Below, one piece after another: positions 29,887 through 47,969 of a DNA stretch of 64,000 nucleotides. This stretch comes from an uncultured Rhodospirillales bacterium (GTDB taxonomy: Bacteria > Pseudomonadota > Alphaproteobacteria > JAWKYA01): assembly GCA_964397465.1 (NCBI GenBank), contig CAYNIC010000011.1:3503-67502 (forward strand), in the 5' to 3' direction. A program made the translations under genes and the position numbers. How positions within the stretch are numbered: position 1 is the stretch's first letter; every line of letters starts with the position of its first letter. The notes beneath the pieces are model-generated. The model had not been told where the DNA came from, ran no database searches, and worked only from the letters and a program-made list of their open reading frames with translations.

Positions 29887-31335
29887 TTAGCGGGCATCCA
29901 CGCCAATCGCTTGGGTAAGCGAGGTAAAACCATCCCGGGCCAGCAGCGCCGAAACCTCGGATTTCAGGCGCTGAACCAGCCCCGGCCCCTGATAAACCAG
30001 GGCGGTATAAAGCTGCACCAGACTGGCGCCGGCCCGGATTTTCGCATAGGTATCGGCCCCGCTGGCAATCCCGCCGACCCCGATCAACGGCAGCTTGCCC
30101 GCAGTGTCGCGATGAACGGTGCGTAAGAGTTCGGTCGATGGGGCGAACAAGGGTTTGCCGCTAAGACCGCCCTGTTGCGACGCGTGAGAACTGCGCAAAA
30201 ACGAAGGCCGGTCGACGGTGGTGTTACTGATGACCAAGCCATCGGCGCCGTTGCCATCGAGGGCGACACTGATGATGCCGTCCAAGGCGGCGCGGCTTAG
30301 ATCCGGCGCGATCTTGATCAGGATCGGCACGGTTTCGCGCAGTTTCACCTGACGTAACGCGGTCAAAATCGCGCGCAGCTGCGTCTCGCCCTGCAGGTCG
30401 CGGAGGCCCGGCGTGTTGGGCGACGACACATTGATCACGGCAAAATCAACCAAGGGGGCGAGCTGGGTAAACACGGTCACGTAATCGCCCACCGGATCGG
30501 CGGTGTTTTTATTGCAGCCGATATTGACCGCCACGGGACGGCGAATTTCTTTATACTGCCGCATCTCGGCAAGACGGCTTGAGGCCGCTGTGGCGCCGTG
30601 ATTGTTGAACCCAAGACGATTGATCAGGGCGTGATCTTCGTTCAAGCGAAACATCCGCGGCCGCGGATTGCCCGGTTGCGGTTTCGGCGTCAAGCCGCCG
30701 ACTTCGATGAAGCCGAAACCAAACCGCTCCATCGCCGGCACGACCCGCGCATCCTTATCAAATCCGGCGGCAAGACCGATCGGATTGGTGAAACTTTTTC
30801 CCCACACCGAGATCGCAAGATTGGCCGGATCATCGGGCGGATCGGTGCGCCAGGGAAACAATCCGGTCTCCAGCAGACGAAGCGTCAGCCGATGAGCGGT
30901 TTCAGGCGCAAGACAGCGCAGCCAGGTTGTCGCCGTACCATAGATGTCGAAGGATAATGCCGCGTCATCGTTCATCTTCAGCGGCGGAAAAACATGCACA
31001 CCATCGGGACCCAGCGGCAAAGGCTCAACCTTGATCACCGCGGCGGGTGACAGCGGACCATAAAGATGGGGGAACAGATCGCCGCCGCGGGACGATTCCC
31101 ATTTTAACGCCGAGCCTAAACTTGGCGCATTCACCGTCAGCAGCAGAAGATCTTTTTGTCCGGCGCGATGTTTCGCGGCGCTGACTTTAATTTGTACCGC
31201 GGTGGAGAAATGGATAAAGCCGTCGCGTATGTCGTCGGGCGACCCGCGATAAGGCGCGCCGCTTGCGACAGCCGCACGCCATTCCGCCTCATGGGCCATG
31301 TGATAGATGAGCTGGGGTGCGGAAGATGAAGTCAT
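29887..31335 (-). CDS. pyrD: DUF952 domain fused in-frame to dihydroorotate dehydrogenase (quinone), PyrD
   Basis: The N-terminal 120 aa match DUF952 (IYHMAHEAEW...GFIHFS...SRGGDLFPHLYGPL). The PyrD portion starts at about Met121 (coordinate 30975) with class-2 DHODH motifs (NRLGFNN, GGLSG, IGVGGI). There is no stop between the two parts. Confidence 0.8.
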   Translation of the reverse strand: MTSSSAPQLIYHMAHEAEWRAAVASGAPYRGSPDDIRDGFIHFSTAVQIKVSAAKHRAGQKDLLLLTVNAPSLGSALKWESSRGGDLFPHLYGPLSPAAVIKVEPLPLGPDGVHVFPPLKMNDDAALSFDIYGTATTWLRCLAPETAHRLTLRLLETGLFPWRTDPPDDPANLAISVWGKSFTNPIGLAAGFDKDARVVPAMERFGFGFIEVGGLTPKPQPGNPRPRMFRLNEDHALINRLGFNNHGATAASSRLAEMRQYKEIRRPVAVNIGCNKNTADPVGDYVTVFTQLAPLVDFAVINVSSPNTPGLRDLQGETQLRAILTALRQVKLRETVPILIKIAPDLSRAALDGIISVALDGNGADGLVISNTTVDRPSFLRSSHASQQGGLSGKPLFAPSTELLRTVHRDTAGKLPLIGVGGIASGADTYAKIRAGASLVQLYTALVYQGPGLVQRLKSEVSALLARDGFTSLTQAIGVDAR

Positions 31336-31440: not shown

Positions 31441-32250
31441 ATGAAGTTTTCATTTTTTACGACATCCGTTTTGGCAGCAACTCTATGGCTGTCTATGAGT
31501 GCAGCAGCACAGGCTCAAGCCCCGACGCCGCAGGAATACATTAAGCGTGGTTTTACATACAACGGCTTCACCCGCAATCCGCATGCCCGGGAACCGTGGA
31601 CGGGACTTTACGCCGATGAGTTGCCGCAACCGACACCGGGTGACGTTTGGCTGACCTTGGGGTGGAGCAAAAAGCAAACCTCCAGTACCTGCATTGGCGA
31701 AACCACGACGCCTTTATGCACCCTCGATACCTTTCTTGCCTGCCTTATCCGCGATGACGGCCGACTTTGCGCCAAGGCGGAGGGAACGAAACCAACCCGT
31801 CGCTGGTCAGGACCACCCCCTTATGCGCCTTATCCATCCCAGACTCCTTACCCGGCTTATGCGCCTTATCCCCGCACCGGACTGATGCGGTATAAAGTTG
31901 CCTCGGTTGCGCGGATTACGGCTGAAACCGCCGCCGAATTTCAAGAACAAGATTCAAGCCACCAAGAAAAATCTGGCGATATTCAGTTACGTATTGATTG
32001 GGAAATGTGTGGCCGCGCCGATCGCAATGGTCATCTTTCCGATTGTTGCCAGCCGCCCTACTCTAGTAGTTTTGTAGTTCGCCGCCAGACTTATGGTCAT
32101 TGGATCTTGGTGCGGCATGATCATCCTGACTTAAACGACCGGCTGCGATTTCACCCCGAAACCGAAGATATCCGCTGGTCAGAAGATTATTACCAAGATG
32201 CGCCTTATTGTACGGATATCAAGGCACCAATTCGGCGCCGTAAACCCTAG
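31441..32250 (+). CDS. hypothetical secreted Cys- and Pro/Tyr-rich protein
   Basis: Signal peptide MKFSFFTTSVLAATLWLSMSAAAQA. PYAPYPSQTPYPAYAPYP repeat. GC lower than the core. Confidence 0.5.
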   Translation: MKFSFFTTSVLAATLWLSMSAAAQAQAPTPQEYIKRGFTYNGFTRNPHAREPWTGLYADELPQPTPGDVWLTLGWSKKQTSSTCIGETTTPLCTLDTFLACLIRDDGRLCAKAEGTKPTRRWSGPPPYAPYPSQTPYPAYAPYPRTGLMRYKVASVARITAETAAEFQEQDSSHQEKSGDIQLRIDWEMCGRADRNGHLSDCCQPPYSSSFVVRRQTYGHWILVRHDHPDLNDRLRFHPETEDIRWSEDYYQDAPYCTDIKAPIRRRKP

Positions 32251-32295: not shown

Positions 32296-32350
32296 ATATC
32301 GCCATCATCCGCCTTCAGACAGCCGCGCGTCATCCGCCTCATGGCCATGT
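32296..32350 (-). pseudogene. diverged duplicate of the DUF952-pyrD 5' end (gene fragment)
   Basis: About 55 bp, roughly 85% identical to 31270-31335. The minus-strand translation MISPFIYHMA... compares with the real MTSSSAPQLIYHMA... Confidence 0.4.
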
Positions 32351-32385
32351 GGTAGATGAATGGAGAAATCATGAAAGTATGTTCT

Positions 32386-33687
32386 CTAAGGAGATCTCTT
32401 TTTCTGATCTTTGCTCTTAAACTTTAGTTTTGGCTGAGGATGGCGTGAGCCATACATCCATTTAGGGTCTATTATCAACTCAGGTTCTTTTTTGGGAGTC
32501 GCTGGTCTTGGAGGGAGAGAAAGCTGCATCGCTTTATCGCCTTGAGCAATATTTTTTAAATGATTTTTAAATAAGCTAACGTCACCAAAATAGTTTGGAT
32601 AAGCAATTTTCAGATTTGCAATCTTATCTATTTCTACCAAAACAACCTCAACCATTTTTTCATTTTCTCTCAATTCACTTTCAACCCTATTGTAAGACTC
32701 AGTAGCAGCAAGCGCTGTGTAGTAGGGGTCAAGATAGACGTAATTTGTAGCGTAATCATACTTAACAAGAAGGTGTGTTGCCTGAGTATTTTGAAGTTGA
32801 GCAGAGCTTGTTCCCTCGACTGCAAGGCTGACACCTTCCAGCAAATTAACAGCATTCAACACATGTGCTAGTTCCCTTATCTCTTCTCGGCGTTCATTAG
32901 CATTAGGTGTGTTAGGAACCGTCGGGCATTCTTCGTGTTCAGCAAACTCGGCTGACATTAATGTTAACAACCGAAGCCAGTTATGGTCGCCCTTACTATA
33001 TTTAAGTTCTTTTTTAATTATAAGACCTACAGATTCTACGGCTGTTGCCCAGGTATGTTGAAGTTTTGTTCGTATCTGAACTTCTATTTTTTTGCCATCG
33101 AAGGCCGTAGGCCGCTTTCCTTGGTAGCTAAAAATAATGTGGTGACTACGATAGCCATCATCTTTAGGTGAAACAATAAAATCTTTCTCACTGTGAAAAC
33201 TGTTAGAAAGATGATGAGTCAAAATATCGCTAATATTTTTTACGTCAGAAATACTTTTAACAATTGCTCTGCATCCGCCGATATCTTGAATCGTTTGCAG
33301 TTTTAAGCGAGTGAGCCTATTTAACTTGTCGCGAATTGACTGCATTCGTTTAAGTCTAGCCGCTACCAGGCCTTCTTGCTTATTGGCTCGTAGCAATGCT
33401 CTAATTTTACCTCGAATACTTCTCATAGGATAAGCATGAGCTTCCCGCCAGTTGTTAGCTATAAGGAAAGCATCGCGGACCTCGAAAGGTATATCGGTTC
33501 CTTCTGGGTGCAGATTTTTTACAGCAATTATTTTACCCGCCTTCTCTATATCGTTAAGCGAGAATTTAAGGTGTGGATAATCGTTCTCGTCAGCCAAGGA
33601 AGGCTCCAAATTAAGGATATCATCCTCCCAGGAAAAACACTTTTCCCGGGCATCTGAGGCTACTATAAGAAATGGTAGATTAGCCAT
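32386..33687 (-). CDS. RelA/SpoT (alarmone synthetase-like nucleotidyltransferase) domain protein with about 190-aa C-terminal extension; toxSAS-like
   Basis: IQDIGGCRAIV...DDGYRSHHIIF...KIEVQIRTKLQHTWATAVE are signature RelA_SpoT synthetase motifs. GC about 37%, in contrast to the 62% of neighbouring genes. Start placed at MANLPFL. Confidence 0.7.
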   Translation of the reverse strand: MANLPFLIVASDAREKCFSWEDDILNLEPSLADENDYPHLKFSLNDIEKAGKIIAVKNLHPEGTDIPFEVRDAFLIANNWREAHAYPMRSIRGKIRALLRANKQEGLVAARLKRMQSIRDKLNRLTRLKLQTIQDIGGCRAIVKSISDVKNISDILTHHLSNSFHSEKDFIVSPKDDGYRSHHIIFSYQGKRPTAFDGKKIEVQIRTKLQHTWATAVESVGLIIKKELKYSKGDHNWLRLLTLMSAEFAEHEECPTVPNTPNANERREEIRELAHVLNAVNLLEGVSLAVEGTSSAQLQNTQATHLLVKYDYATNYVYLDPYYTALAATESYNRVESELRENEKMVEVVLVEIDKIANLKIAYPNYFGDVSLFKNHLKNIAQGDKAMQLSLPPRPATPKKEPELIIDPKWMYGSRHPQPKLKFKSKDQKKRSP

Positions 33688-33724
33688 GAAATTCCTTTCT
33701 AAGAGATCAAGAATAATCCCTACC

Positions 33725-34345
33725 CTACCTACGCCCTGCATAAGGATCATGTAGAGCAGGTACAGTAACTTGTGACGTAGCGCCGCCGCCGTTGCGTTGG
33801 AAAAGTTTCTCGGCTAACCGCGCGATGCCACCGCCGTCGGGCAAGCTCAACGGGCCCGACTTATCGTGGCTGCGCTTATAGACATAGATGCCCAGAACGC
33901 CCAAAGCGACACTCCAACTGGTCGAGAGGTTGTCGAGGGCCGCAATCACCTCCACGGCAAACGCTGGTTTGATCGCGATCAGATAGGCAACCGCCCCCAT
34001 CTGTCCCAACCAGGTCACGGCGATGATATAACCAAAGGTGGGTCTCATGCGCCGCACGTAAGGATCGTCCGACGCAACCTCGCGGCGGATGGTGCGGTTG
34101 ACTTCGGTCAGTGTAACGGCATCCCGGTCGGCTTCGATCTGCGCCATGGTTTCCAGATGGCGGTTGGCCTCGTTTATTGCTTCGGGCGGAACCTCGCCCT
34201 TGCCGATGGCGTCGGTGACACGGCCTAAGGCGTCGGACGCTGCCTTGGCCAAAGGATGAGAGAGTTTACCAAGGGCAAATCCGACGAGTTTGGCAAGAAC
34301 CGGCAAGCCGATGCCGGCAAGAAGACTGGCAAACATTTTTGTCAC
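33725..34345 (-). CDS. putative holin (3-TM, GTA/phage type)
   Basis: Three predicted TM helices. Gene overlaps the endolysin stop (ATGA). Confidence 0.5.
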   Translation of the reverse strand: MTKMFASLLAGIGLPVLAKLVGFALGKLSHPLAKAASDALGRVTDAIGKGEVPPEAINEANRHLETMAQIEADRDAVTLTEVNRTIRREVASDDPYVRRMRPTFGYIIAVTWLGQMGAVAYLIAIKPAFAVEVIAALDNLSTSWSVALGVLGIYVYKRSHDKSGPLSLPDGGGIARLAEKLFQRNGGGATSQVTVPALHDPYAGRR

Positions 34346-34800
34346 TCCACATTGTTATAGAAAACATGGCGGCCGATGCGGGCCGAGGGGGTGCGGCCGT
34401 GGGACCAATAGGGGCTGATATGGCTTGCGTGGTAATGGGTGGCGCCGTTGGTCGGATCGGCCATGGTGCCGCCAAGCGCCTCGGCGGCGATGAGAAGCGC
34501 CAAACGAAACGCCGCATCGCTTTCATCCACGGTCAGTACCTTGATCCGGTTGGGATCGCCCACGTTCCAGCAGGAAAATTGATAGGCGGCAAGGCAGATC
34601 TCCCGCACCGACCGTGTCCGCTCGATCCCTTCGCGAGCCCGGCGGTTGATGATGACGGCGGCGATCGCGCGCATGCCGGCCTCGCCTTCGCTGCGCGCTT
34701 CGCCCCACAAAGTGCGGGCCAGGATGTCCCGTTCCCGCGCCGGTTCGGCCAAGGCCTGATCGATCCGCACCGCGGCGGGACTCAAAGTGCGACTCATCAT
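34342..34800 (-). CDS. cell-wall hydrolase (SleB/Hydrolase_2-type endolysin)
   Basis: TLWGEARSEGEAGMRAIAAVIINR...NGATHYH is a typical Hydrolase_2 family sequence. Confidence 0.75.
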   Translation of the reverse strand: MMSRTLSPAAVRIDQALAEPARERDILARTLWGEARSEGEAGMRAIAAVIINRRAREGIERTRSVREICLAAYQFSCWNVGDPNRIKVLTVDESDAAFRLALLIAAEALGGTMADPTNGATHYHASHISPYWSHGRTPSARIGRHVFYNNVE

Positions 34801-35108
34801 ACGGCTCCTTGTTTGGGAAACAGGGGAACATCCAGCTTGGCTTCGATGCGCAACAGGTGCGACGTTAACCGCCGCTCTACATCCTTCAGGTAGGCGATCG
34901 AGGCGTAGGATTTCGCCACTTCCAGTTTATAGGCGGCCAAGGTCTCGCGCAGTTGCGCATCCCCGGTGTGACATTGATGACGGAGGTGATCTAGTTTCTC
35001 TTCGCCATCGCGGCGGATGCGCCAGATGAACCAGAACAGACCGGCCAGGGTCGGCAGCTCGACCGCGGTGATCCACCACAACAGGGTCTCGGGCAAAAAG
35101 TTGCTCAT
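34797..35108 (-). CDS. phage membrane protein (N-terminal TM plus coiled coil; spanin/holin-associated?)
   Basis: MSNFLPETLLWWITAVELPTLAGLFWFIW is a TM helix, followed by a helical region. ATGA overlaps on both sides. Confidence 0.4.
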   Translation of the reverse strand: MSNFLPETLLWWITAVELPTLAGLFWFIWRIRRDGEEKLDHLRHQCHTGDAQLRETLAAYKLEVAKSYASIAYLKDVERRLTSHLLRIEAKLDVPLFPKQGAV

Positions 35109-35434
35109 AGGGATGATCCGTTTGCAGAAGGTAAGGTTGGCGCCGGTGCGTGGGTGTCGCTTTGCCAGTTTTTTCCTTCGGTGATGATGCAAGATCGGCT
35201 GGAGGTGAGGCGCGCCACGGCAACCCAACTTGCCGTCATCGGCGCGATGTAAACATCGATGGTCGTGCCCTCCGCCGTGGTGCCGCGGCCTAGACGGATA
35301 AATCCCTTGGCGGGGGCGAGGGCTTGATCAAGCTCCGCCGTCGATCCGCACCGCGGTGCTGCAAGAGTAAGCGACGGCAAGGCAAGGATCATCGCGCCAA
35401 GCGTCAGCCCGGCGATACTGTGACAGTAGCGCAT
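35105..35434 (-). CDS. hypothetical secreted phage protein
   Basis: Signal peptide MRYCHSIAGLTLGAMILALPSLTLA. Placed between terL and the lysis genes. Confidence 0.35.
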   Translation of the reverse strand: MRYCHSIAGLTLGAMILALPSLTLAAPRCGSTAELDQALAPAKGFIRLGRGTTAEGTTIDVYIAPMTASWVAVARLTSSRSCIITEGKNWQSDTHAPAPTLPSANGSSL

Positions 35435-35466
35435 AAAAATTCTCCTCAAGATGGGGTTAGAAAAAC

Positions 35467-36960
35467 CTACGGTTCGAAATCGGTTGCGGCGGCGGTGTTG
35501 GTGGCGCCCGGTCGCCAATCGCGTTTGGTCCGCGGCGCAAAGGCGGCGGCAATTCGCACCGGCTCTGCTGAAATGGCGCCGGCCACCGCATCCAGGGCGT
35601 CATCGGGACGTTTGCGACTGGTCGCCGCGGGCCGCCAGTCGCGCATCTGTTGAATAAACGGTGTCTGCCACAGGCTGCGATGGGCGTATAAGGTTCCCGC
35701 CGCCAAGGGCACATCAAGCGCATCCAAAATGCGTTGGGTTTTGGGTTTGCTGCTGTGGGCTTCGACCACCACGGTTGGAATCTTCGCCTCACTCAAGGCG
35801 TGACGTAAAAGTCCGGGCAAGAACCGGCCGATGCCGTTGGTCTCGATGGTCACTGTGGGCAGATGAAGTCCGCGCAAGAATTCGGCCGCTTGGCGGCAGA
35901 GCTGCGTTGCCTCGTCGACTTGCGGCAAGGCGGTCATGTCGTGGTTCAGATAGGTCAGGCGATGGAGATAGAAATTTCCTATCGCATCGGAAAACACCGC
36001 GGCAATCACGCTGCCGTCGCCCTTTTCCGCGGCGCCAAAGGCCGGATCCCACCAACAGCTCGCCGAGACCAGTCGCGTTTGACCCAACATCAGCACCGGC
36101 ATCCGGTTGGCCTCGCTGTAAACCAACTCGCCGTCATAGGGACGCAAGCGATCGGGGTTGAGACGCGCCGCCGTGACGTTGCTGGGCCGCAGCAACATCT
36201 GCGCCGCGAACTTCGCCTCGCCGCTGCGCCGCCGCATCTTGGCAATCTCGGTTTTGCCATAGCGTTCCGGCCAGATGCTGCGGCCCCGACGATCGAGCAA
36301 CGGCATCTCCATCCGTTTGAAGTTGCCCAGAAACGGTATGTCTTCACCCAATTCGCGCCGCGCTTCGGTGGCATAGATAGAGTAATAACTGTGGGGCGTG
36401 CCGATATAGATCTGGGTTCCGCCCGGCACCAGGATATAGGGAATTTCACTCAACCGGTCGCGCAGGTCCTGACGCTTGGGCGGGGTATCGCAGGTATTGG
36501 GAACCTCCACATCATCGCACAGGATCACATCGGCCCGGCTGCCGGTGACATTGGCCGAGATGCCGCGGCCCAGCATTGACGGATCGCGCAGCTCGCCCGG
36601 TCGTTTGACCGTAAACTGATCCATCGCCCAGGACGAAGTGCGGCGCGGTTTTAATCCCTTGGTAAAGGGATGGCGCTCGATCAGCCGTTTCACATTGCGC
36701 ACCATCTTGCAGGCAAGATCGTGCTCCGCCGCCAGAACCAAGATCCGCAGCATCGGATTCTTGGTAAACAACCAAGCACAGAATAATCCGCAGATGGTCG
36801 ACTTGCCGCTTGACCGAAACGCCAGCAGTACCAGTTCATGATCATGGGCTGCCCACCGGGCCGCCAGCCACCGCGCCATGCGGAGTTGCACCCGCGGTGT
36901 GGTTTGGCCCTGATGCTCGTTCCACATCCAGACGAATTCGGGAAAGCTGGGCGCGGTCAT
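35467..36960 (-). CDS. phage terminase large subunit
   Basis: Walker A LLAFRSSGKST, Walker B ILCDDVE and a C-terminal RNaseH-like nuclease region. Occupies the T7 gp19 position. Confidence 0.85.
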   Translation of the reverse strand: MTAPSFPEFVWMWNEHQGQTTPRVQLRMARWLAARWAAHDHELVLLAFRSSGKSTICGLFCAWLFTKNPMLRILVLAAEHDLACKMVRNVKRLIERHPFTKGLKPRRTSSWAMDQFTVKRPGELRDPSMLGRGISANVTGSRADVILCDDVEVPNTCDTPPKRQDLRDRLSEIPYILVPGGTQIYIGTPHSYYSIYATEARRELGEDIPFLGNFKRMEMPLLDRRGRSIWPERYGKTEIAKMRRRSGEAKFAAQMLLRPSNVTAARLNPDRLRPYDGELVYSEANRMPVLMLGQTRLVSASCWWDPAFGAAEKGDGSVIAAVFSDAIGNFYLHRLTYLNHDMTALPQVDEATQLCRQAAEFLRGLHLPTVTIETNGIGRFLPGLLRHALSEAKIPTVVVEAHSSKPKTQRILDALDVPLAAGTLYAHRSLWQTPFIQQMRDWRPAATSRKRPDDALDAVAGAISAEPVRIAAAFAPRTKRDWRPGATNTAAATDFEP

Positions 36961-37319
36961 GACAGATCATCATCCTCGGCATCATCGTCCGGCACGGTAT
37001 CGTCGGTATCCGCCACCGCATCCCGCGCCCGGGTCAACAGCGACGCCAAGGCATCGTCGCTTTCCGCTTCTTGATGATCCACCGCCCACCGCGCCAGACG
37101 TAACAGCCCATCCAAATGTCCTAGGGCGGATTTGCACGCAGTATGATAGGCGGAAAAACCCTTGGCGGTGTTGTCGCAGGGTGCGGCGACAAACTGGGTA
37201 TAGCTGTCCAAGGCGGTGGCCAATAAAACGGGAAGATCCTGGGCGATTTTTTGCCGGGTGGACTCGAGGCCCTTTTGGGTGCGGTTTTTGCTGGAAAGTT
37301 TTGATACCGAAACTGTCAC
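36957..37319 (-). CDS. hypothetical phage protein with acidic C-terminus (in the position of the terminase small subunit)
   Basis: 120 aa. ATGA overlap with terL. No recognisable motif. Confidence 0.35.
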   Translation of the reverse strand: MTVSVSKLSSKNRTQKGLESTRQKIAQDLPVLLATALDSYTQFVAAPCDNTAKGFSAYHTACKSALGHLDGLLRLARWAVDHQEAESDDALASLLTRARDAVADTDDTVPDDDAEDDDLS

Positions 37320-37354
37320 GTCATGTCCTTTCGAGGGAAAACAAAGGCAAGAAA

Positions 37355-37585
37355 TTATCGGGGCGGCAGTGTGCCGGTGATTCCAGTGGCGATTTTTAGA
37401 AACTGTTCCAGCCGCGCCTCGACCTCAGCCAATCGGGTTTCCAGGGGCAGGGAAGATGCCGGTGAAGAAGGTGATGAATCCGGCGGCGCAATGAAAACCG
37501 CCGAGGCGGTTTCGTCGTTTTTCAGGATATAGTTCTCGTCCTCCCATCGAACGCTAAGACCGCGGTTACTGTAGATATAGGGCAT
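37355..37585 (-). CDS. hypothetical phage protein
   Basis: 76-aa ORF between the tail fiber and the terminase module. Confidence 0.3.
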   Translation of the reverse strand: MPYIYSNRGLSVRWEDENYILKNDETASAVFIAPPDSSPSSPASSLPLETRLAEVEARLEQFLKIATGITGTLPPR

Positions 37586-37594
37586 GGAACCTCC

Positions 37595-40087
37595 TTAAAA
37601 TTCGTAGCCGTTGATATCGAGCCGAAACTGAGCCGTAGTTGTGGACGACCGCCAATACACCTGCTGGGTTGTGTTCAAGATCAGACGAAACTGTCCGGCG
37701 ATCCGCCATCCATCGAAGATGGTACCGCTGGCATTCCCGGCCGCGGTGTAACAGCCGCCGGTGCCGGTGGCGTCGGCGGCAATGGCGATGGTGTCGTTGG
37801 CCGAGGCGGCGGATTGGCCGATGGTTCCGGAGACCACACCCGCGGCCGGCGGCACCGCATTGGCGATGGATTGCACCGTCCAACTGGTGATGCCGGCGAT
37901 GCCGGTAAAGATGGTTTGTGGTGCCTGAATGACGCTGCGGTCGAACTGATAAAACTTCACCAGATTTGATGCGCCGTCATTGCGCGCCGACCCGACCAAG
38001 GCCTTGTAAGTATATCCGCCGGGAAGCATCGGTGTCGTTCCCGACAAGGATATCAATCCCGCCACGGTGGAGGTCGCGGCATTGTAAATGACCCACAACC
38101 GGTACCAGGTGGCGGCGGCTTCAACGCCGCTGTCCAACCCGTTGACGCCGCTGGCGGCGATGTCGACGGTAACCGCAATGTTGCTCAGCATCATCGCGTC
38201 ACCGGCGGCGTCCTTCACCATCAGTTCATCCGCGGCGATGTCGATCTTATTGGCCGGCGACGCGGCATTGACTCCGGCTTTCAGCCGTCGCGCTTGCCCG
38301 GCAAGGGTGAGGGAATGGGTAAAACTTAAAACGCCATTACCATTGGTGCGGAGAACTTGACCGGCCAGGCCGTCGCTGCCGGGAAAAACAAGACCCTTCA
38401 GTTTGATCTTGCCGCTGCCGTTGGGTGAGAGGTCGATGTCGCCGTTCCCGGTACTGACGATTTTCTTGCCATTGACGATCAAATCCCCGCCCAGTTTTGG
38501 CGCCGGATCATCTTCGATCTTCATCAATATCCCGGGGATGCCTTGCGCGCCGGTGTCGCCTTTCATCGCCAGGACATCCCAATAGATCCCGTTGGGCGGC
38601 GTGTGATTGATATGGGCGATTTTGCAGCGATAACTGCTGCCGGCAAGGGTTGCCACATCGCCGATGACATAGGACGTTACCGCCGACCATGCGCCTTTCC
38701 AGGCCAAGGCGCCGTCATTGCCGGCAAGGCCGTCCACGGCGACCAAGGCCCATTGCGGCGTGGTTGCCGTAAGACCGATGCGGCTTGGCGTGATGCCTTG
38801 ATGATCGACGGCGGCGATATAGGTTGCGCCGCTGGCATCATGGCGGACGACATCGCCGCGTTTGTAGGATGTCGTCATTTCCCACGCGGCCATCCAAGCG
38901 AATCCAAGCTCGGTCAAGGGCAAGGGTACAACCGTAACCGACTTGCCGGTCCACACCATCCATCGTGCGGCATAGGAGGGCGACGTCAGATCAACGGGGG
39001 TGCCGCCGCCGCTGGCGTCGGTTGTTCCCGCCTGGGCGATGTCGCCGGCGGCGAAACCGCTGCCGCCCGCCAGTTGGGGATTGGCCCCGGCTTTGTTGTA
39101 AACGTATCCGTGGCTGTGGGTTGGAAGTTCCGCCAAGGTTAGACTGTGTTTCTCTTCGCCGAAACTTGCGCCCAGTTGGCGAAGAGTAAGACCGGCACCT
39201 TGTCCTGCACCGACGATGGCACGGCCGCGCAAGTCGGGAAGTTTGACTGTGTCGTGCAAAAGCCACGTCTCGCTTCCCTGGTTAGGCGGCAAGGTGCGGA
39301 GGATGGAAAACAGGTTTTCATAGGCGCCATGGGCATGATCCGCTCCGCTTGAGGCGTCGCCCAAGGTTTTGCCATCGAGCTCCAGCCATCCGTCGGGCGC
39401 CATGCCGCCAAGGAGGCCGCCGAGAAACGGATGAATGGTGCCGACCGGTATCGCCGCCGCGACCTGACTGTTAAGGGCGTTCAAGCTGGCGGTGACACCG
39501 TTTAATGCCGCGGTACTGGCGGCGCCCAAGGTGGATCGTCCCGCTGCGGGATTTCCTGCCGCCAATAATGTCTCGCCAAATCCCGACACCGCCAGGTTTC
39601 CCGGCGGGGTGGCGATAATGGCCGTGGGCCGCCCCTCCGCATCAAAGCCCAGCGCTCGCCCGGCGCGAAGCGGCGCCAAGGGCAAGGTCATATCGACGTC
39701 GCTGTCGAACGGCGCCTTGGCAAGGGCATCGCCGGTCAAAGCCTGAACCTGCTGCACGCCCAAGGTCAAACGATCCAGTTCTTCATTCACCACTGCGGCG
39801 CGAAAGGATTCGCCATCGATGAAATCGGTGGTGCGGCTGATCGGCATGGCGCGGCTGATGGTCACCCGGCATCCGGCGGGCGGCGGAATAAAAAATACCA
39901 CATCACCGCCGCTGCTATTTCCGATGCCGGTAACCGTATAGGTGTTGATCGGCGCCCATTGGTCGTTCAACGCGACCTTTAAATCATCGCCGTTCAGAAT
40001 GGGGAAGTCGTAAGCAAAGGCCGTGACGGCGCCGGTGCCCCAATGCTGAAGGCGTGGCCGGACATCGCCGATGAGAAGATCGGACAT
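37595..40087 (-). CDS. phage tail fiber protein with tail-collar domain
   Basis: VKLPDLRGRAIVGAGQG is the phage Tail_Collar motif. 830 aa, Gly/Ala-rich and beta-rich. Confidence 0.8.
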   Translation of the reverse strand: MSDLLIGDVRPRLQHWGTGAVTAFAYDFPILNGDDLKVALNDQWAPINTYTVTGIGNSSGGDVVFFIPPPAGCRVTISRAMPISRTTDFIDGESFRAAVVNEELDRLTLGVQQVQALTGDALAKAPFDSDVDMTLPLAPLRAGRALGFDAEGRPTAIIATPPGNLAVSGFGETLLAAGNPAAGRSTLGAASTAALNGVTASLNALNSQVAAAIPVGTIHPFLGGLLGGMAPDGWLELDGKTLGDASSGADHAHGAYENLFSILRTLPPNQGSETWLLHDTVKLPDLRGRAIVGAGQGAGLTLRQLGASFGEEKHSLTLAELPTHSHGYVYNKAGANPQLAGGSGFAAGDIAQAGTTDASGGGTPVDLTSPSYAARWMVWTGKSVTVVPLPLTELGFAWMAAWEMTTSYKRGDVVRHDASGATYIAAVDHQGITPSRIGLTATTPQWALVAVDGLAGNDGALAWKGAWSAVTSYVIGDVATLAGSSYRCKIAHINHTPPNGIYWDVLAMKGDTGAQGIPGILMKIEDDPAPKLGGDLIVNGKKIVSTGNGDIDLSPNGSGKIKLKGLVFPGSDGLAGQVLRTNGNGVLSFTHSLTLAGQARRLKAGVNAASPANKIDIAADELMVKDAAGDAMMLSNIAVTVDIAASGVNGLDSGVEAAATWYRLWVIYNAATSTVAGLISLSGTTPMLPGGYTYKALVGSARNDGASNLVKFYQFDRSVIQAPQTIFTGIAGITSWTVQSIANAVPPAAGVVSGTIGQSAASANDTIAIAADATGTGGCYTAAGNASGTIFDGWRIAGQFRLILNTTQQVYWRSSTTTAQFRLDINGYEF

Positions 40088-40111
40088 GAGAGTGTCTCCT
40101 TATAGAGGCGC

Positions 40112-40603
40112 TTAACGGATCAGGGATATTTGCTGAATGGCGTAGTGGGTTCCGGTGTCCAGCAGGCTGCGGCCGATGGCGTTCGCCGGCGACAAGCGAC
40201 GCTCGCGGTCCAAAATCTTGGCGCGCTGCTGCGTTTGGGCGATTGCGGCGCCGTTGTCGGCGAGGTCAGCATCCCGTTTGGCCAAGGCTTGTTCCGTCGC
40301 GTCGGCATGACGCGATTGCATCGCCTGTTGCAAGGCCGCCGTACTGCCGCCGTCATCATTGATGCCGCGCGCCGCCGCACTGGTGCGGGCGCCGCCCAAC
40401 TCGCGGCGTAACCCAAGGCGCCGGGTCGCTTGATCGGTCTCGAAGTTGTCGGCGATCAGCGAGCGTCGCCGCTGCAAGGACGCCAGTTGCTGCTGGGCAG
40501 CGAGGCTTTGCGCTTTCGCTTCGGCCCGGCGGGCGGGAAGATTCAGCGCCGTTTGGGCTGCTGTGGCGGCAAGCTGTGGAAGTAACGGGGTTGACGCGGC
40601 CAT
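40112..40603 (-). CDS. hypothetical virion protein (T7 gp13/gp14 position)
   Basis: 163-aa Ala/Gln-rich protein between the tubular protein B gene and the tail fiber gene. One-nt overlap coupling. Confidence 0.4.
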   Translation of the reverse strand: MAASTPLLPQLAATAAQTALNLPARRAEAKAQSLAAQQQLASLQRRRSLIADNFETDQATRRLGLRRELGGARTSAAARGINDDGGSTAALQQAMQSRHADATEQALAKRDADLADNGAAIAQTQQRAKILDRERRLSPANAIGRSLLDTGTHYAIQQISLIR

Positions 40604-42534
40604 CAGTCATTCACCTTAAGTTCGCAGTTGACGGAAAGAAGCGTGAAGGAAAAAGGATTGCTTTGGGTAATGCGCCACAGCGGTTCCAGCGCGCCGCGAT
40701 GCCAGCCCAAGGCCCGCACCGTGACATCGCCGGTATAGGCCGCCGGCGGTGAGTCAAGATTGACGCCGCCGATCGTCTGCAACGGAACCAATCTTGGTCC
40801 GCGGCCCACATCAACCATCAAGGCGGGGGTGTCTTTGATGCGGAAGGTGGCGCGGATCAGCCGCAAGGGCTCACCCTGAAGTTCTCCGTTGTCCGACGGC
40901 GGCAGGGGCTCGATGCTGTGGGTAAAGGCAAGACCTACTTCGATGCGGGTGGCGGTGGCGGCCAGAGAAATCACCCCGCCTTTGACCTTATAAAGGCCGA
41001 GCGGCCGGCCATCGGCGATGACCGTCACCCATTTGTCGTTGAGATGGGACAGCCCGCCCCAAATCGATTGGGCTTGTTCGGTTTCGCCCAACAAGGCGGC
41101 ATCACTGTTAAGTTGCGGATCAAATTTTTCGATCCGAAAATCGGCAAAACGTTTGGCCAAGGCATAGACGTCGCCGCCCACCACGGCGACGGCATGAAAC
41201 TCGCCGTCGGTTTCCAACCGCGTCCAGGCGGTGACATTCTCCGAGCGATAAAGGGTAAGGGCGCCGAGGCCGCCGTCGCTCATCACCACGTAAAGCACCC
41301 GCGACTTATCGGCGTAATCCATGTCGATCGGATCCGTCACCAGATGCGGAGCCAGCACCGAGAGGTCGCGGGCTTGGTAAGCCGCCTCGGCATCGGTATA
41401 AAGAAGTTCGCGAATTTGCCGGCCGCTGCGCGCGGCAAACAGGGTTGCGCCTTCAACCGCGCGGGGTGGTACGGTGCGATCAGGGTGTGAGCCGACGGTG
41501 GTTTGCCGTTTCGCCTGGACCGTGGCGGGAGATAACGGCTCGCCGGTGATCTGCCACTCGCCGCCGGTGGTCAAAACAAACAGCGTCAGACCGGAATGCA
41601 TCCCGCGAATGGCGTCGACCTGTTCCGACAACAATCCGAACTCGATCGCATCGTCATCCTCGCCGATGCCAAGATCAAAGTTGAACAGATCCGAAGTCCG
41701 CGACATCCAGATCCGGTTGGGGATCGACCGGGCGCCGCCGAACACCAACCGGTCTTGGGCGAAGGCGACGCTGGCGGGCCAGCCGCGATAGGGTGAAAAC
41801 GCCTGCTCGGACCAATCGGTGATGGCGGTGGTGTTGGGCAAGGACAGGGCCAGCGTCACCTTCACCGCCGTTGCCGAGGTGACCTCGATGATGGCGACAT
41901 CCTGGTTGGGCAGGCGTAAGTATGCGCCCAGCTGCGCCGGATCAAACACCGGTGCCGATGCGGTCAAGGTAATGGTGCCAGAGGTGCCGCTGGGCGTTAA
42001 GGTCACGGTATCTCCGGCGAAACGATAGAACGGATGATAGCGGCGTTTGGTTGTCGTATTGGCGACAAAGGTTAGATCCGCCAAAACCCAGGTTTGCGGC
42101 CCTAGACGGGTGAGGGTCTTTGGCGCAACATCGGGATGACAAATAAACAACGTGTCCGCACTTTGCGCCCAAGTCAGACGCTTGATCTGATCCGCCGTCC
42201 ACGGCGTGGCCACGGTGGCGATGACCGCATCATGGTGCAGGATGGTGATCTGCTGATGGGTGACGACCAACAGATAAGTCTGCTCGGCATTAAAGGCGAA
42301 ACCGATCAGACGGCCGGAGCCCGCGGCGATGGCGATATGACGCAGGCCAGGCCGGCGCGTCACGCCTCCGGTCGGCTGCACCAAAATATTGCGCAGTTTT
42401 TTTGCGGCGTTGCTGTACGACGCAAGATCGCCCCGGCCGTAAAGATCGCTCGATACTTCGCCGGCGGTGAAATTATTTTTGAGAACCCGCATGCGTCCCA
42501 TCTCAGCCTCCTCCAGTCCAGCCGGTAAGATCAA
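40603..42534 (-). CDS. tail tubular protein B (T7 gp12-like)
   Basis: N-terminus MRVLKNNFTAGEVSS...VQPTGGVTRRPGL parallels gp12 (NLKGGISQQP...GLQKRPP). Size 643 aa. Synteny after the tubular protein A gene. Confidence 0.65.
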   Translation of the reverse strand: MILPAGLEEAEMGRMRVLKNNFTAGEVSSDLYGRGDLASYSNAAKKLRNILVQPTGGVTRRPGLRHIAIAAGSGRLIGFAFNAEQTYLLVVTHQQITILHHDAVIATVATPWTADQIKRLTWAQSADTLFICHPDVAPKTLTRLGPQTWVLADLTFVANTTTKRRYHPFYRFAGDTVTLTPSGTSGTITLTASAPVFDPAQLGAYLRLPNQDVAIIEVTSATAVKVTLALSLPNTTAITDWSEQAFSPYRGWPASVAFAQDRLVFGGARSIPNRIWMSRTSDLFNFDLGIGEDDDAIEFGLLSEQVDAIRGMHSGLTLFVLTTGGEWQITGEPLSPATVQAKRQTTVGSHPDRTVPPRAVEGATLFAARSGRQIRELLYTDAEAAYQARDLSVLAPHLVTDPIDMDYADKSRVLYVVMSDGGLGALTLYRSENVTAWTRLETDGEFHAVAVVGGDVYALAKRFADFRIEKFDPQLNSDAALLGETEQAQSIWGGLSHLNDKWVTVIADGRPLGLYKVKGGVISLAATATRIEVGLAFTHSIEPLPPSDNGELQGEPLRLIRATFRIKDTPALMVDVGRGPRLVPLQTIGGVNLDSPPAAYTGDVTVRALGWHRGALEPLWRITQSNPFSFTLLSVNCELKVND

Positions 42535-43114
42535 ATCCGCCGGCGGTTTCTTCCTGGGCGTCGATCAGACGGGCGCGGCGAAATTCTTCCTCGGCGGCAC
42601 GGGCCAAGGCTTCGGCCCGGGATGAATTCTCGGTCAAAGGAATGCAGAACTCGGCCGCCAGGCGCGCGATCAGCACATGATCAAAGAACGGCGGAAAATC
42701 CGCTTCGCCGGGGCGAAAAATATAGGTCAGGATCACTTCATCGGCGTGGGCGTGAAGCCGCCGCTCGGCGATGCGGTAGGTAAGCCCGCGCCCGCGACGG
42801 CCGTTACCGGCGGAAAGGGCGCGAAGATAATCGCCGGGCAATTGAAACGCATAGGCATAGTCGGCGGGGGGCGAGGCCGCCAAGGGCGCAAGCCGCCGTT
42901 GCGCCGTGGCGAAATTCCACGGATGGGCGGAGAGCAGGGCGTCCCGCGTCGACGGATAAAGCAGGCTGGCCACCTCGGCGGCAGCGGAGCCTTCGTCAAA
43001 TCCTAAAATAGGCGCGGCGCCGATTTTCACCAGCGCTCGGGCACAAAGTTGAATGGCGCTCAGAGCCATGGCTCGTTGCCTTTCCCATAAAAAAGCTCCG
43101 CGGCGATGAACCAT
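42503..43114 (-). CDS. tail tubular protein A (T7 gp11-like)
   Basis: 203 aa. MALSAIQLCARALVKIGAAPILGFDEGSAAAEVASLLY...HPWNFA parallels the gp11 N-terminal pattern. Confidence 0.6.
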   Translation of the reverse strand: MVHRRGAFLWERQRAMALSAIQLCARALVKIGAAPILGFDEGSAAAEVASLLYPSTRDALLSAHPWNFATAQRRLAPLAASPPADYAYAFQLPGDYLRALSAGNGRRGRGLTYRIAERRLHAHADEVILTYIFRPGEADFPPFFDHVLIARLAAEFCIPLTENSSRAEALARAAEEEFRRARLIDAQEETAGGFDLTGWTGGG

Positions 43115-43152
43115 CGCCGGCGGAGCCGATCACAACAGAGAAAATAGATTTA

Positions 43153-43410
43153 TTAGTCGGTGTTCACGCTGCCGACGGCGGTCATGTCGGCGACATCGAC
43201 CGTGCCGTTCTGGCTGGAAGCGATCAGAAGAATGCCGGCGCCGCCGTTGACATTGGCGAGAATCATATCGCCTTTGCGCAGCATATCTACGGCGGGATTA
43301 AAATAGCCGTTGGTATCGACGATGTCGGCGGTATCGGTCGAGGCATAATGCCAAAGGGTAAAGCCGTTGGCATAGGCCAGCACCGAAAGGTTTCTGGCAA
43401 GATAGGCCAT
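43153..43410 (-). CDS. hypothetical phage protein
   Basis: 85-aa ORF between the capsid and tubular A genes. Confidence 0.35.
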   Translation of the reverse strand: MAYLARNLSVLAYANGFTLWHYASTDTADIVDTNGYFNPAVDMLRKGDMILANVNGGAGILLIASSQNGTVDVADMTAVGSVNTD

Positions 43411-43448
43411 GAAGATCTCCTTTATCTCTTTAAGCTAAGGGTGAAATT

Positions 43449-44273
43449 TTACGCTTCGCTGCACGGCAGGGTGACAAGACCGGTGCCATCGACCAGCACC
43501 GCGCCCAAGGACAGCGAGCAGCTGACGAACCACGCGGCCCGATCGTTGTGATAGGCGATGTCGGTGTTGACTTCCGATCCCACCGCGAGGGCAAGGGCGG
43601 TCTTGTGCCACCAATGGCACAGGCGGTGACCATTGCCGTCGAGGCCAAGGCCGGAATGGGGCATCCACAAGGTTCCCAGCCAGCGCTTGGCCTGGGTGCC
43701 GCGCCAGGGCAGATCGTCGCTGCCGACATAATCGGCATTGGCGAATTCCTGGATCATCAAGAGATCGGACCATTGTTTCCATCCCACCACGGCGTAACGA
43801 TCTCCGTCATCGGGCACATCGTTGCCGCCCAGGATGCCGAAGGCCTCCAGCACCTTTTGTTTGGTGAGACCGCCGCTAACCGTCGGAGTCAGATTGGCCG
43901 AGGTGTTCATCTGCGCCAAAATCAGCTCGTCGGTTTTGCGGCCCAAGGCATAGGCGCCGGCATTGGCCACCACCGCCCGCTCTTCGTTCTCGGTCTTAAG
44001 TTCGTCCAGGGCGTCCACCCATTCGCCGGCATAGTAATCCGACAGAAAACATTCGATCGGCGCGTGATCGATGTTCATCACCGGCACCTTGCCGTGTCGC
44101 GCTTTGGTCGAAGCGCTGCCCTTGCCGACTTTTTGAAACACGGTGGAGGCGCCTTTAACGCTGCCCTTGGCGCGAACGCAAGGGCGGAGCTTGGCGCCCG
44201 TACGCTGATAGGCTTCGTGAACTTCCTTTTCGAACTGCTTGATGAAAGCAGCATCAATGGAGGGTTTATTCAT
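43449..44273 (-). CDS. major capsid protein (T7-like podovirus type)
   Basis: 274 aa. Position between scaffold and tail tubular genes. Weak pattern similarity to gp10. Confidence 0.6.
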   Translation of the reverse strand: MNKPSIDAAFIKQFEKEVHEAYQRTGAKLRPCVRAKGSVKGASTVFQKVGKGSASTKARHGKVPVMNIDHAPIECFLSDYYAGEWVDALDELKTENEERAVVANAGAYALGRKTDELILAQMNTSANLTPTVSGGLTKQKVLEAFGILGGNDVPDDGDRYAVVGWKQWSDLLMIQEFANADYVGSDDLPWRGTQAKRWLGTLWMPHSGLGLDGNGHRLCHWWHKTALALAVGSEVNTDIAYHNDRAAWFVSCSLSLGAVLVDGTGLVTLPCSEA

Positions 44274-44394
44274 GGTGATCCTTTCAGAAAAAATAAACGG
44301 TTGAGTCCGGCCACGGGTTATCCGCGCAGGGGCGGGCTTGCAGCCGGATGAAGGAAAAAGACGGGCCGCCGCAACGGTTGTCCGTAATTAAGAC

Positions 44395-45132: not shown

Positions 45133-45136
45133 GGCA

Positions 45137-46983: not shown

Positions 46984-46998
46984 GGCCTCATGTGTTCC

Positions 46999-47027
46999 TA
47001 TATAGTTCTCTTTTCAGTTCCTGTCAA
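46999..47027 (-). promoter_or_regulatory. consensus sigma70-type promoter reading into the structural operon
   Basis: On the minus strand: TTGACA, a 17-nt spacer, then TATATA. Confidence 0.5.
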
Positions 47028-47109
47028 CGGTATTTTTTCTTAAAAAATGAAAAAGAAGCTGGCCGCCTGTGGGCAAGGTTTCCTTCCGGCTGAATCCCCA
47101 GCGTCTATT

Positions 47110-47924: not shown

Positions 47925-47969
47925 GGCTTTGCTCCCTTGAAGGGCTTTTTTCTCTCGCGGTAAACGAGT

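Follow-up and report, generated by a model that had tools for sequence, protein, structure and literature searches.

The locus described here raises the question of what an intact, AT-rich open reading frame (ORF) with RelA/SpoT-type synthetase motifs does directly behind the lysis genes of a phage-derived cluster, and how it came to be there. The original prediction had read the ORF as a fused toxSAS toxin-antitoxin of the CapRel type. CapRel is a single-protein anti-phage toxin-antitoxin that senses a phage protein and then stops translation (PMC9712102, PMC11578894). Its member CapRel-SJ46 comes from Salmonella phage SJ46 and E. coli prophages (PDB 7ZTB, 9ERV; Zhang et al. 2022, 2024; PMC9712102, PMC11578894). 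We analyzed the gene within the whole 64-kb stretch of DNA that surrounds it (the window) by a combination of profile, sequence and structure comparisons.

Gene model and family membership

The intact ORF occupies positions 32386-33750 of the minus strand and encodes 454 aa when read from its most upstream ATG. It carries the motifs DIGGCRAIV, DDGYRSHHIIF and IEVQIRTKLQHTWA, the three RelA/SpoT synthetase motifs on which the original prediction was based, and these lie in a protein that matches the Pfam family RelA_SpoT (residues 132-236, E 5.8e-20). The probable start, as read from the sequence, is an internal ATG at 33687 (M22), which would give a protein of 433 aa. This start is preferred because it is preceded by a Shine-Dalgarno sequence, whereas the ATG at 33750 has none and overlaps the 3' end of the holin gene, and because the homologues begin near M22. 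The public JGI gene call at this locus is a truncated model of 319 aa, which needs correction. The gene and its putative ribosome-binding site are as follows.

32386..33687, minus strand: CapRel-like fused toxSAS gene; 433 aa when counted from M22, the probable start, with the stop codon TAG at 32386-32388; the longest ORF extends to 33750
33693..33696, minus strand: Shine-Dalgarno sequence AGGA, 5 nt upstream of the start codon at 33687, read from the sequence

The encoded protein is a member of the CapRel family. It matches the PADLOC family PDC-S33 with an E value of 2.9e-104 (residues 59-402, model positions 4-342 of 349), a family that CapRel-SJ46 itself matches at E 4.9e-86 and that was named in no paper found by our literature search. 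A full-length match was also obtained to phrog_4773 (E 4e-82, positions 9-348 of 353). The best sequence matches in the PDB were the CapRel entries 7ZTB and 9ERV (E 5e-33, query 60-398 against chain 11-365), and BLASTP against CapRel-SJ46 gave 31% identity over 365 aligned positions. The original prediction had proposed a structural comparison with CapRel as a check, and a Foldseek search with the AF2 model (pLDDT 76, pTM 0.70) ranked CapRel first, with 7ZTB and 9ERV as the top matches over ~360 columns. Full-length homology, PADLOC and PHROG families, the conserved residues described below and the predicted fold thus all support the reading as a CapRel-type fused toxSAS. The protein, related to CapRel over its full length, thus extends a known family by a new member.

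The second-best structural matches were RelP and RelQ, and together with the Pfam RelA_SpoT match and weak matches to the NCBIfam models GTPPhKinYjbM and spoT_relA they could be taken to indicate a housekeeping or stress small alarmone synthetase (SAS), that is, a RelQ/RelP-like (p)ppGpp synthetase whose regulatory C-terminus is unusual. However, both NCBIfam scores fall far below the curated cut-offs (61.4 bits against 320 for GTPPhKinYjbM; 44.5 against 499 for spoT_relA), and the housekeeping SAS structures align over only ~180-200 columns, matching the synthetase half, whereas the C-terminal half is CapRel-like. RelA_SpoT was the only domain found in a Pfam search of the whole protein, with TGS, ACT and HD domains absent, and the C-terminal half and tail gave no TGS, ACT or other Pfam domain at E <= 10. 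A C-terminal half folding as TGS or ACT, or homologues that are routinely housekeeping genes, had been named in advance as observations that would speak against a toxSAS. Neither was found, the homologues not being syntenic housekeeping genes. Foreign base composition and absence from syntenic relatives (see below) argue in the same direction, and we consider a housekeeping synthetase extremely improbable.

Domain architecture and conserved residues

The protein is divided into an N-terminal synthetase domain, an antitoxin/sensor region that includes a pseudo-zinc-finger domain (pZFD), and a tail.

32992..33576, minus strand: toxSYNTH (RelA/SpoT nucleotidyltransferase) domain, residues ~38-232, based on Pfam and the SJ46 alignment; pLDDT 80-97
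32542..32991, minus strand: antitoxin/sensor region, residues 233-382, with anchor-1 helices, pZFD and anchor-2 helices
32590..32601, minus strand: YPNY, the YxxY autoinhibition motif, whose tyrosines Y363 and Y366 correspond to Y352 and Y355 of SJ46
32389..32541, minus strand: C-terminal tail, residues 383-433, with a Pro-rich linker, conserved W410 and a polybasic end

In CapRel-SJ46, R79 and R116 stack ATP and Y155 is the G-loop tyrosine (PMC9712102). These residues align with R111, R140 and Y179, all three of which are invariant among 32 homologues. The SJ46 residues A77, V338, L339, A351, Y352 and Y355 correspond to A110, V349, L350, A362, Y363 and Y366, which are invariant or nearly so in the same 32 sequences. 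The exception is SJ46 A341, a tested interface residue, which is replaced by E352, an invariant Glu across the subfamily. At the N-terminus, the protein has ~36 extra variable residues relative to CapRel-SJ46.

The C-terminal domain had been described in the original prediction as lacking an obvious zinc-finger Cys pattern and, on that ground, as possibly a different sensor domain. The first observation is correct, no Cys pattern being visible in the protein sequence. Nevertheless, the pZFD of CapRel-SJ46 is likewise devoid of cysteines (PMC9712102), so the idea of a different sensor is not supported by this feature. In addition, a profile built from the C-terminal half alone matched only CapRel (residues 212-367, E 8.9e-11), and the AF2 model has a beta-beta-alpha-beta pZFD (strands 305-311, 316-322 and 346-352, helix 325-339) together with C-terminal helices. 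We therefore rejected a different sensor domain, the region being homologous to the CapRel pZFD and anchors by both profile and predicted fold. The Pfam search of the C-terminal half and tail returned spurious sub-threshold matches to RuvX and MethyltransfD12.

The sequence AYPNYFG is common to the protein and to CapRel-SJ46. Among the 32 homologues A362, P364, N365, Y366, F367 and G368 are invariant and Y363 is conserved in at least 90%, making the YxxY block, with a pairwise identity of 0.91, the most conserved stretch outside the catalytic motifs. The most variable folded blocks are parts of the anchor-1/pZFD region. The same pattern of a conserved YxxY and a variable anchor-1/pZFD has been reported for CapRel (PMC9712102).

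Beyond YPNYFG, all 32 aligned subfamily members continue for 47-70 aa with a net basic charge, and the tail contains a W-L-R-x-x-R-F-P motif between the Pro-rich linker and the polybasic end. Of the best 150 representatives, ~47, or about one third, align through it. It has no match in Pfam or the PDB, and with a pLDDT of 43-60 in the AF2 model it is probably disordered. Judged from these alignments, the ~50-aa Pro-rich basic tail, which is absent from CapRel-SJ46, defines a sizeable CapRel subclade of which we found no description in the literature surveyed. The tail could act as a tether to tRNA or the ribosome, as a second autoinhibitory latch, or as a second sensor. A bolder proposal, which we hold only tentatively and consider rather doubtful, is that the tail is a functional module altering this CapRel subclade and that, moreover, the promoter-less copy described here may have become part of the lysis operon of its carrier, a podovirus-type, GTA-like element that is inherited vertically. 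If such wiring is real, expression would be tied to induction of the element and would not be constitutive.

Insertion site and the phage-derived carrier

The gene lies at the junction between the last gene of a phage-derived cluster and pyrD, the dihydroorotate dehydrogenase (DHODH) locus, within a short segment of foreign DNA.

32376..33724, no strand assigned: AT-rich inserted DNA, ~1.35 kb, essentially the ORF alone, delimited by the GC profile and by relatives; the left border is uncertain by ~60 nt
33725..34345, minus strand: holin gene (GTA_holin_3TM), last conserved gene of the phage-derived cluster (Pfam E 2.6e-11, PHROG holin)
32300..32372, minus strand: decayed duplicate of the DUF952-DHODH 5' end, from alignment, with repeats D3, D5 and D13 spaced ~1050 nt

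The GC content of the CapRel-like ORF is 40.3% (GC3 34.5%; single 100-nt windows lie between 31% and 48%), as compared to a mean of 57.4% for the window and 58.6-64.5% for the adjoining holin, endolysin and TerL genes. The contrast claimed in the original prediction is thus real, although its figures of 37% within 62% were slightly exaggerated. Its placement of the ORF directly after a holin gene was accurate, the holin itself being preceded by the genes for an endolysin (Hydrolase_2) and the large terminase.

On the other side, the duplicate translates as '..FIYHMA..' against 'LIYHMAHEAEW' of DHODH and has decayed with frameshifts; from its alignment, it shows where the holin gene and pyrD originally met and where the insertion ends on its downstream side. 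In two relatives (L007 and L009) the holin gene is followed by DHODH without a CapRel-like gene between them, and none of 77 related syntenic elements carries the gene at this position, which identifies it as a lineage-specific insertion. No tRNA gene that could have served as an attachment site is present in the 64-kb window. There is no adjoining gene for a separate cognate antitoxin: the holin gene lies upstream, and the decayed DHODH 5' fragment followed by a convergent secreted-protein gene lies downstream.

The original prediction had also regarded the gene as a candidate phage moron. Foreign GC content and presence/absence polymorphism agree with that reading, but neither of the two further moron attributes, an own promoter and terminator, was detected in the insert (37 nt upstream, ~13 nt downstream) by a crude sigma-70 consensus scan, which may miss alphaproteobacterial promoters. 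The lack of a detected promoter, a composition that departs strongly from that of the host and the truncated public annotation would also suit a non-functional relic, an insertion that has stayed intact by chance and was never expressed. This we consider highly unlikely: the 433-codon frame is uninterrupted and has a good Shine-Dalgarno sequence, and all of the listed family-invariant residues are present (by definition, the query being among the sequences compared), while the adjoining DHODH 5' duplicate, by contrast, has already decayed.

Several other interpretations of the surroundings were tried and rejected. A mobile cassette with conserved non-coding flanks or inverted repeats was dismissed, as the homologues share no upstream sequence, and the repeats around the gene in the window belong to the duplicated 5' end of DHODH and do not represent the ends of a transposon. 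A candidate partner gene, sec269, was discarded since no homologue of it adjoins any other CapRel homologue. As a separate observation, the loci of three homologues (L001, L003 and L006) share downstream similarity, which consists of a small convergent ORF and an IS1595 transposase that are absent from the window.

The carrier is a 16-kb podovirus-like cluster of structural and lysis genes, among them that of the major head protein (43449-44273), without integrase or replication genes. It is syntenic in 77 alphaproteobacterial genomes and keeps the same chromosomal position beside pyrD in divergent Alphaproteobacteria; its cultured carriers include Geminicoccus (L022, L028). It looks like a vertically inherited, non-autonomous and apparently domesticated phage-derived cluster and not an ordinary prophage. 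Our literature search found no paper on a conserved podovirus-type element in Alphaproteobacteria, and the carrier may be of more interest than the CapRel-like gene. Homologues of the gene turn up in mobile or accessory settings, which supports the reading as a foreign insertion. Their neighbors include IS1595 transposases and an MmeI restriction-modification gene; a position within a split terminase gene, another at the edge of a prophage and solitary chromosomal insertions were also observed, and 12 IMG/VR viral contigs carry a homologue.

A conserved, apparently domesticated carrier, together with an interval of only 37 nt between the holin stop and the start codon at 33687 in which no promoter or terminator was detected, might suggest that the gene serves the cluster and is expressed only on cluster induction, and does not act as a general host sentinel. 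In such a role, it might bring about late shutdown of host translation or the exclusion of related superinfecting elements. Yet the cluster evidently does not need a CapRel-like gene, as 0 of 77 related clusters have one. The occurrence of homologues in unrelated contexts, including the solitary chromosomal insertions and the IS1595 units, also speaks against a function for the carrier, and the negative promoter result comes from a crude sigma-70 consensus that may miss alphaproteobacterial promoters. We thus regard a carrier-serving role as unlikely.

Proposed mechanism and comparison with known systems

As a whole, the locus is best explained as a horizontally acquired fused toxSAS toxin-antitoxin of the CapRel family that is autoinhibited, triggered by a phage protein and pyrophosphorylates tRNA, and we consider this explanation likely. 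The comparisons above establish the family, the domain architecture, the conserved functional residues, the foreign origin and the site of insertion, whereas autoinhibition, the tRNA substrate, the phage-protein trigger and the defense function are inferred by homology. At rest, the C-terminal pZFD would fold back onto the N-terminal RelA/SpoT-type nucleotidyltransferase, and YPNY (Y363, Y366) would sit between R111 and R140 in the site for ATP, the pyrophosphate donor, and so keep the enzyme off. A protein of an infecting phage, by analogy either the major capsid protein or an unrelated small protein, would bind to the variable anchor-1/pZFD surface and keep the protein open. The open enzyme would then use ATP to pyrophosphorylate tRNAs at their 3'-CCA ends, blocking aminoacylation and translation and thereby aborting the infection.

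The gene was acquired horizontally as little more than the ORF itself, and it entered between pyrD and the holin gene of the resident phage-derived cluster. Since it has no recognizable promoter of its own, transcription would probably come from upstream, either as read-through from the lysis operon or starting at an unrecognized promoter. A sentinel would be expected to need constitutive expression, and the failure to find a sigma-70-like promoter upstream is a point against the explanation; were transcription confined to that of the lysis genes, the gene could have another role.

The choice of tRNA as the predicted substrate follows from the architecture. Donor-site inhibition by a pZFD with YXXY, in cis or in trans, goes with the tRNA-targeting class of toxSAS, whereas (pp)pApp-producing toxSAS enzymes are neutralized at the acceptor site by Tis1-like domains (PMC11782079). 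The pZFD/YxxY architecture of the protein therefore points to tRNA pyrophosphorylation and not to (pp)pApp synthesis. Killing through (pp)pApp production and ATP depletion, in the manner of FaRel/Tas1, would be compatible with the synthetase fold and catalytic motifs, as these are common to all toxSAS enzymes, and at 31% identity to CapRel-SJ46 the substrate is not readable from sequence. On the other hand, a pZFD with YPNY in cis is of the tRNA-targeting and not the Tis1-like type (PMC11782079), no Tis1-like immunity or antitoxin gene adjoins, and the nearest relative of known structure pyrophosphorylates tRNA, which makes (pp)pApp synthesis improbable. For the preferred tRNA-targeting mechanism, both substrate and trigger could nonetheless differ from those of CapRel-SJ46, given the 31% identity to this sole characterized relative.

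Among known systems, RelQ and RelP (YjbM/YwaC; PDB 5DEC, 6EWZ, 6FGK) share the synthetase fold and catalytic motifs with the protein, but they are (p)ppGpp-making enzymes encoded by housekeeping genes of the chromosome and have no C-terminal antitoxin/sensor domain, and their alignment covers ~115-135 residues by sequence and ~180-200 by structure. Systems of the FaRel/Tas1 type rely on a Tis1-like immunity domain, usually encoded by an adjoining gene, in place of the cis pZFD with YXXY found here. FaRel2/ATfaRel2 and PhRel/ATphRel (Phrann gp29/gp30), which have tRNA targets and are associated with phages or prophages (PMC11782079, PMC9712102), combine, as the protein does, a toxSYNTH toxin with a pZFD whose YXXY blocks the ATP donor site. 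In these systems, however, toxin and antitoxin are separate genes acting in trans, while here they are fused with no adjoining antitoxin ORF; proteins of these systems were not among the PDB sequence matches at E <= 1.

The closest counterpart is CapRel-SJ46. The two proteins differ by their 31% identity, by the ~36 extra N-terminal residues, the ~50-aa tail and the Glu at the A341 position, and by the host, which is an alphaproteobacterium and not an enterobacterium. Like CapRel-SJ46, the protein described here is a single polypeptide with an N-terminal toxSYNTH domain, C-terminal anchors and a cysteine-less pZFD, co-linear over SJ46 residues 11-365, with the equivalents of R79, R116, Y155 and AYPNYFG kept; both belong to PADLOC PDC-S33 and PHROG 4773, and both are carried on phage-derived DNA. 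The comparison adds an alphaproteobacterial member on phage-derived DNA to a family whose characterized members come from enterobacterial prophages, and it makes the protein, which retains the autoinhibition motif and the ATP-site residues at this level of identity, a suitable candidate in which to look for triggers among hosts with few characterized defense systems.

CapRel family membership and fold

The AT-rich reading frame at 32386..33750 (reverse strand; 454 aa at its longest) had been predicted to encode a RelA/SpoT synthetase, and its translation contains all three RelA/SpoT motifs and a Pfam RelA_SpoT domain (residues 132-236, E = 5.8e-20). The first ATG, at 33750, lacks a Shine-Dalgarno sequence and overlaps the 3' end of the holin gene, whereas the ATG at 33687 (M22) has AGGA 5 nt ahead of it and yields an N-terminus that agrees with homologues. 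The start was therefore corrected to 33687, and from here on residues are numbered on the resulting 433-aa protein. In the public JGI record of this locus the gene is called from M115 of that protein, at a length of only 319 aa, and a spurious opposite-strand 73-aa gene covers the missing N-terminal part.

PADLOC matched a single model, PDC-S33, over nearly the whole protein (E = 2.9e-104). Residues 12-366 of CapRel-SJ46, the characterised fused toxSAS toxin-antitoxin of Salmonella phage SJ46, were rebuilt from the PDB alignment and also match PDC-S33 (E = 4.9e-86), which therefore represents the CapRel family. PHROG 4773 matched at full length (E = 4e-82). In a PDB sequence search the top matches were 7ZTB and 9ERV (E = 5e-33), which are CapRel-SJ46 alone and with Bas11 Gp54 bound; the alignment is co-linear (query 60-398 versus chain 11-365) and includes the C-terminal domain, whereas housekeeping SAS enzymes matched over about 115-135 residues only. 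BLASTP against CapRel-SJ46 gave 31% identity over 365 aligned positions.

Since the synthetase domain could supply most of a full-length score, the C-terminal half was searched separately. As a single sequence its sole match was CapRel, at a marginal E of 0.015, and a profile built from 23 subfamily C-terminal halves matched CapRel residues 212-367 (E = 8.9e-11) and nothing else. The suggestion that the C-terminus might be a different sensor domain was thus not borne out; CapRel's own domain has no cysteines, so the missing zinc-finger Cys pattern is no sign of a different sensor.

An AlphaFold2 model from 32 homologues (mean pLDDT 76, pTM 0.70) has a confident synthetase core followed by a beta-beta-alpha-beta unit (strands 305-311, 316-322 and 346-352; helix 325-339) and then helices; this topology is that of the CapRel pseudo-zinc-finger domain (pseudo-ZFD) (PMC9712102). 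Foldseek against the PDB placed 7ZTB_B, 9ERV_A and 7ZTB_A on top (E = 2.8e-19 to 3.8e-18; about 356-360 columns; target-normalised TM 0.63-0.64; rmsd 8.6-10 A), with RelP and RelQ next at about 180-200 columns. This rmsd would fit a modelled domain arrangement different from the open crystal form. The profile, alignment and structure matches agree with the fused toxSAS architecture of the original prediction, and we are confident that the protein belongs to the CapRel family and shares its architecture.

Functional residues and predicted activity

Residues with a described function in CapRel-SJ46 were mapped onto the protein through the PDB alignment and the 32-homologue alignment.

Residues of CapRel-SJ46 (PMC9712102), their counterparts here, and conservation among 32 homologues
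R79, R116 (ATP stacking): R111, R140; invariant
Y155 (G-loop): Y179; invariant
A77, V338, L339, A351 (interface scaffold): A110, V349, L350, A362; invariant or at least 90%
Y352-x-x-Y355 (autoinhibition motif): Y363-P-N-Y366; Y366 invariant, Y363 at least 90%
A341 (interface scaffold): E352, differing from CapRel-SJ46; Glu invariant in the subfamily

The sequence AYPNYFG around the autoinhibition motif is common to both proteins. Block-wise conservation is highest, at 0.91, in the YxxY block and, at 0.77-0.94, in the catalytic motifs, and among folded blocks it is lowest in parts of the pseudo-ZFD and of the anchor-1 helices that flank it (0.35-0.40); the same pattern in CapRel has been explained by an arms race over the sensing surface (PMC9712102).

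In toxSAS enzymes that pyrophosphorylate tRNA, pseudo-ZFD/YXXY antitoxin elements block the ATP donor site, in a clean dichotomy with (pp)pApp-making toxSAS, whose acceptor site is blocked by Tis1-like domains (PMC11782079). The protein has the pseudo-ZFD/YXXY type, so tRNA modification is the more likely predicted activity, and synthesis of (pp)pApp is improbable. At rest, the YPNY motif of the pseudo-ZFD would block the ATP site; binding of a phage protein to the variable sensor surface would open the enzyme, which would then pyrophosphorylate tRNA 3' ends and arrest translation. By this comparison with CapRel, the gene probably acts as a CapRel-type fused toxin-antitoxin, with the activity, trigger and defence role that we infer here.

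Insertion site and carrier cluster

The features of the locus are as follows.
33725-48717, reverse strand: carrier cluster (about 16 kb), its structural and lysis genes T7/phiKMV-like
47968-48717, forward strand: S24 repressor, at the end of the carrier cluster
31441-32250, forward strand: sec269, encoding a secreted 269-aa protein (53% GC)
29887-31335, reverse strand: DHODH (pyrD), 482 aa including a fused N-terminal DUF952 domain
31262-31335 and 32300-32372: duplicated 5' end of DUF952-DHODH (about 75 nt)

As originally noted, the gene directly follows the holin of a lysis module: the large terminase (TerL), a TM protein, a Hydrolase_2 endolysin and a GTA_holin_3TM holin precede it in turn on the same strand. 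Its AT-richness also held, although the GC values first given were slightly overstated: the gene has 40.3% GC (GC3 34.5%), against 58.6-64.5% for holin, endolysin and large terminase and a window mean of 57.4%. The AT-rich DNA begins no more than about 60 nt from the stop codon of the holin (33725-33727) and ends about 13 nt past the CapRel stop, so that the insert, about 1.35 kb long, consists of little more than the ORF. At its end, the old junction can be recognised by a decayed copy of the DUF952-DHODH start (32372 to about 32300). A scan of the insert edges detected neither a sigma-70-like promoter nor a terminator. The position after the holin and the lack of a detected promoter would favour a role that depends on induction of the carrier, which we consider improbable, and it is very unlikely that the gene is an unexpressed relic.

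The two DUF952-DHODH 5' copies bracket a separate insertion of about 1.05 kb carrying sec269, and the distal copy has decayed with frameshifts. We rejected sec269 as a partner gene because it is not associated with CapRel homologues elsewhere; it had no match in Pfam, PHROG or NCBIfam. In two related carrier loci, L007 (13010-14161) and L009 (13588-14682), the DHODH ORF is 364-383 aa long and lacks the DUF952 extension, and the tblastn match in a third, L063, is long enough to include it.

We compared the cluster with 77 alphaproteobacterial loci (L007-L083) having a related large terminase (TerL identity 44-61%). The order S24 repressor, portal, scaffold, major head protein, tail tubular A/B, tail protein, TerL, TM protein, endolysin and holin is kept among them, and none carries a CapRel-like gene past the holin, which upholds the view of the gene as foreign to its carrier and moron-like. 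DHODH directly follows the cluster in 10 of the 77, as in the window; in some loci further host genes (GroEL, a HAD hydrolase, an EAL protein) come next with the order unchanged, and the repressor end of the L083 cluster (Ferrovibrio) borders on a DinG-like helicase. In or beside the window cluster, no integrase or replication gene was found. Given the conserved synteny, the host-gene neighbours and this lack, the carrier appears to be no ordinary prophage but a podovirus-like cluster that is non-autonomous, has long been resident and is inherited vertically, which suggests a domesticated, possibly GTA-like podovirus-type element; our literature search found no description of it. In two loci (L030 and L073) the module order is permuted, with repressor, TerL and lysis genes ahead of portal, head and tail genes. 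L083 has apparently lost the region between portal and TerL, which indicates decay of the cluster in some lineages.

Relatives and comparison with CapRel-SJ46

Close CapRel relatives (43-52% identity) occur as accessory genes in a variety of mobile settings. At three independent loci the homologue is followed by a small convergent ORF of about 45-55 aa (conserved '..RFIxAAREAxxDExGKxFEQ..') and then an IS1595 transposase:
L001 (also L002), 9245-10439
L006, 9255-9617
L098, 8248-9305

This suggests that an IS1595-type unit carries the homologue along as a passenger; the window has neither the small ORF nor the transposase. The L006 homologue also lies at the edge of a prophage early region. At another prophage locus (L003, 7413-10346) a 50%-identical homologue lies between two large-terminase fragments (Terminase_6N, 169 aa; Terminase_6N/6C, 259 aa), flanked by lower-GC DNA (about 80 nt upstream and about 300 nt downstream) and with weak IS1595-like fragments upstream, an arrangement that may be a disruptive insertion or intron-like. 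The homologue adjoins an MmeI-type restriction-modification gene in L100 and is solitary amid metabolic genes in L097 and L099. IMG/VR holds 12 viral contigs with relatives (35-44% identity). In all sampled homologue loci, gene GC is 8-12 points under the surroundings. These varied contexts and lowered GC are unlike the pattern of chromosomal housekeeping SAS genes, making a housekeeping role most improbable, and fit a horizontally mobile defence gene.

The protein differs from CapRel-SJ46 at both ends: its N-terminus bears about 36 variable residues, and YPNYFG is followed by 65 residues, against about 17 in CapRel-SJ46. The extra tail (383-433) comprises a Pro-rich linker, a conserved Trp in a W-L-R-x-x-R-F-P-like motif and a polybasic end, and is predicted to be disordered (pLDDT 43-60). 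It matched nothing in Pfam or the PDB, and no description of it was found in the toxSAS literature examined. All 32 aligned relatives have a tail of 47-70 residues past YPNYFG with net positive charge. An exhaustive search of cluster representatives (E <= 1e-30) returned 1,052. Among the best 150, the alignments of about 47 extend through the tail; for the remoter representatives the alignment ends near residue 377-385, and these proteins are 340-375 aa long, like CapRel-SJ46. The gene itself adds a member to the already known CapRel family; modestly new angles on it are the subclade that bears the tail, the repeated linkage to IS1595 and the unusual nature of the carrier.
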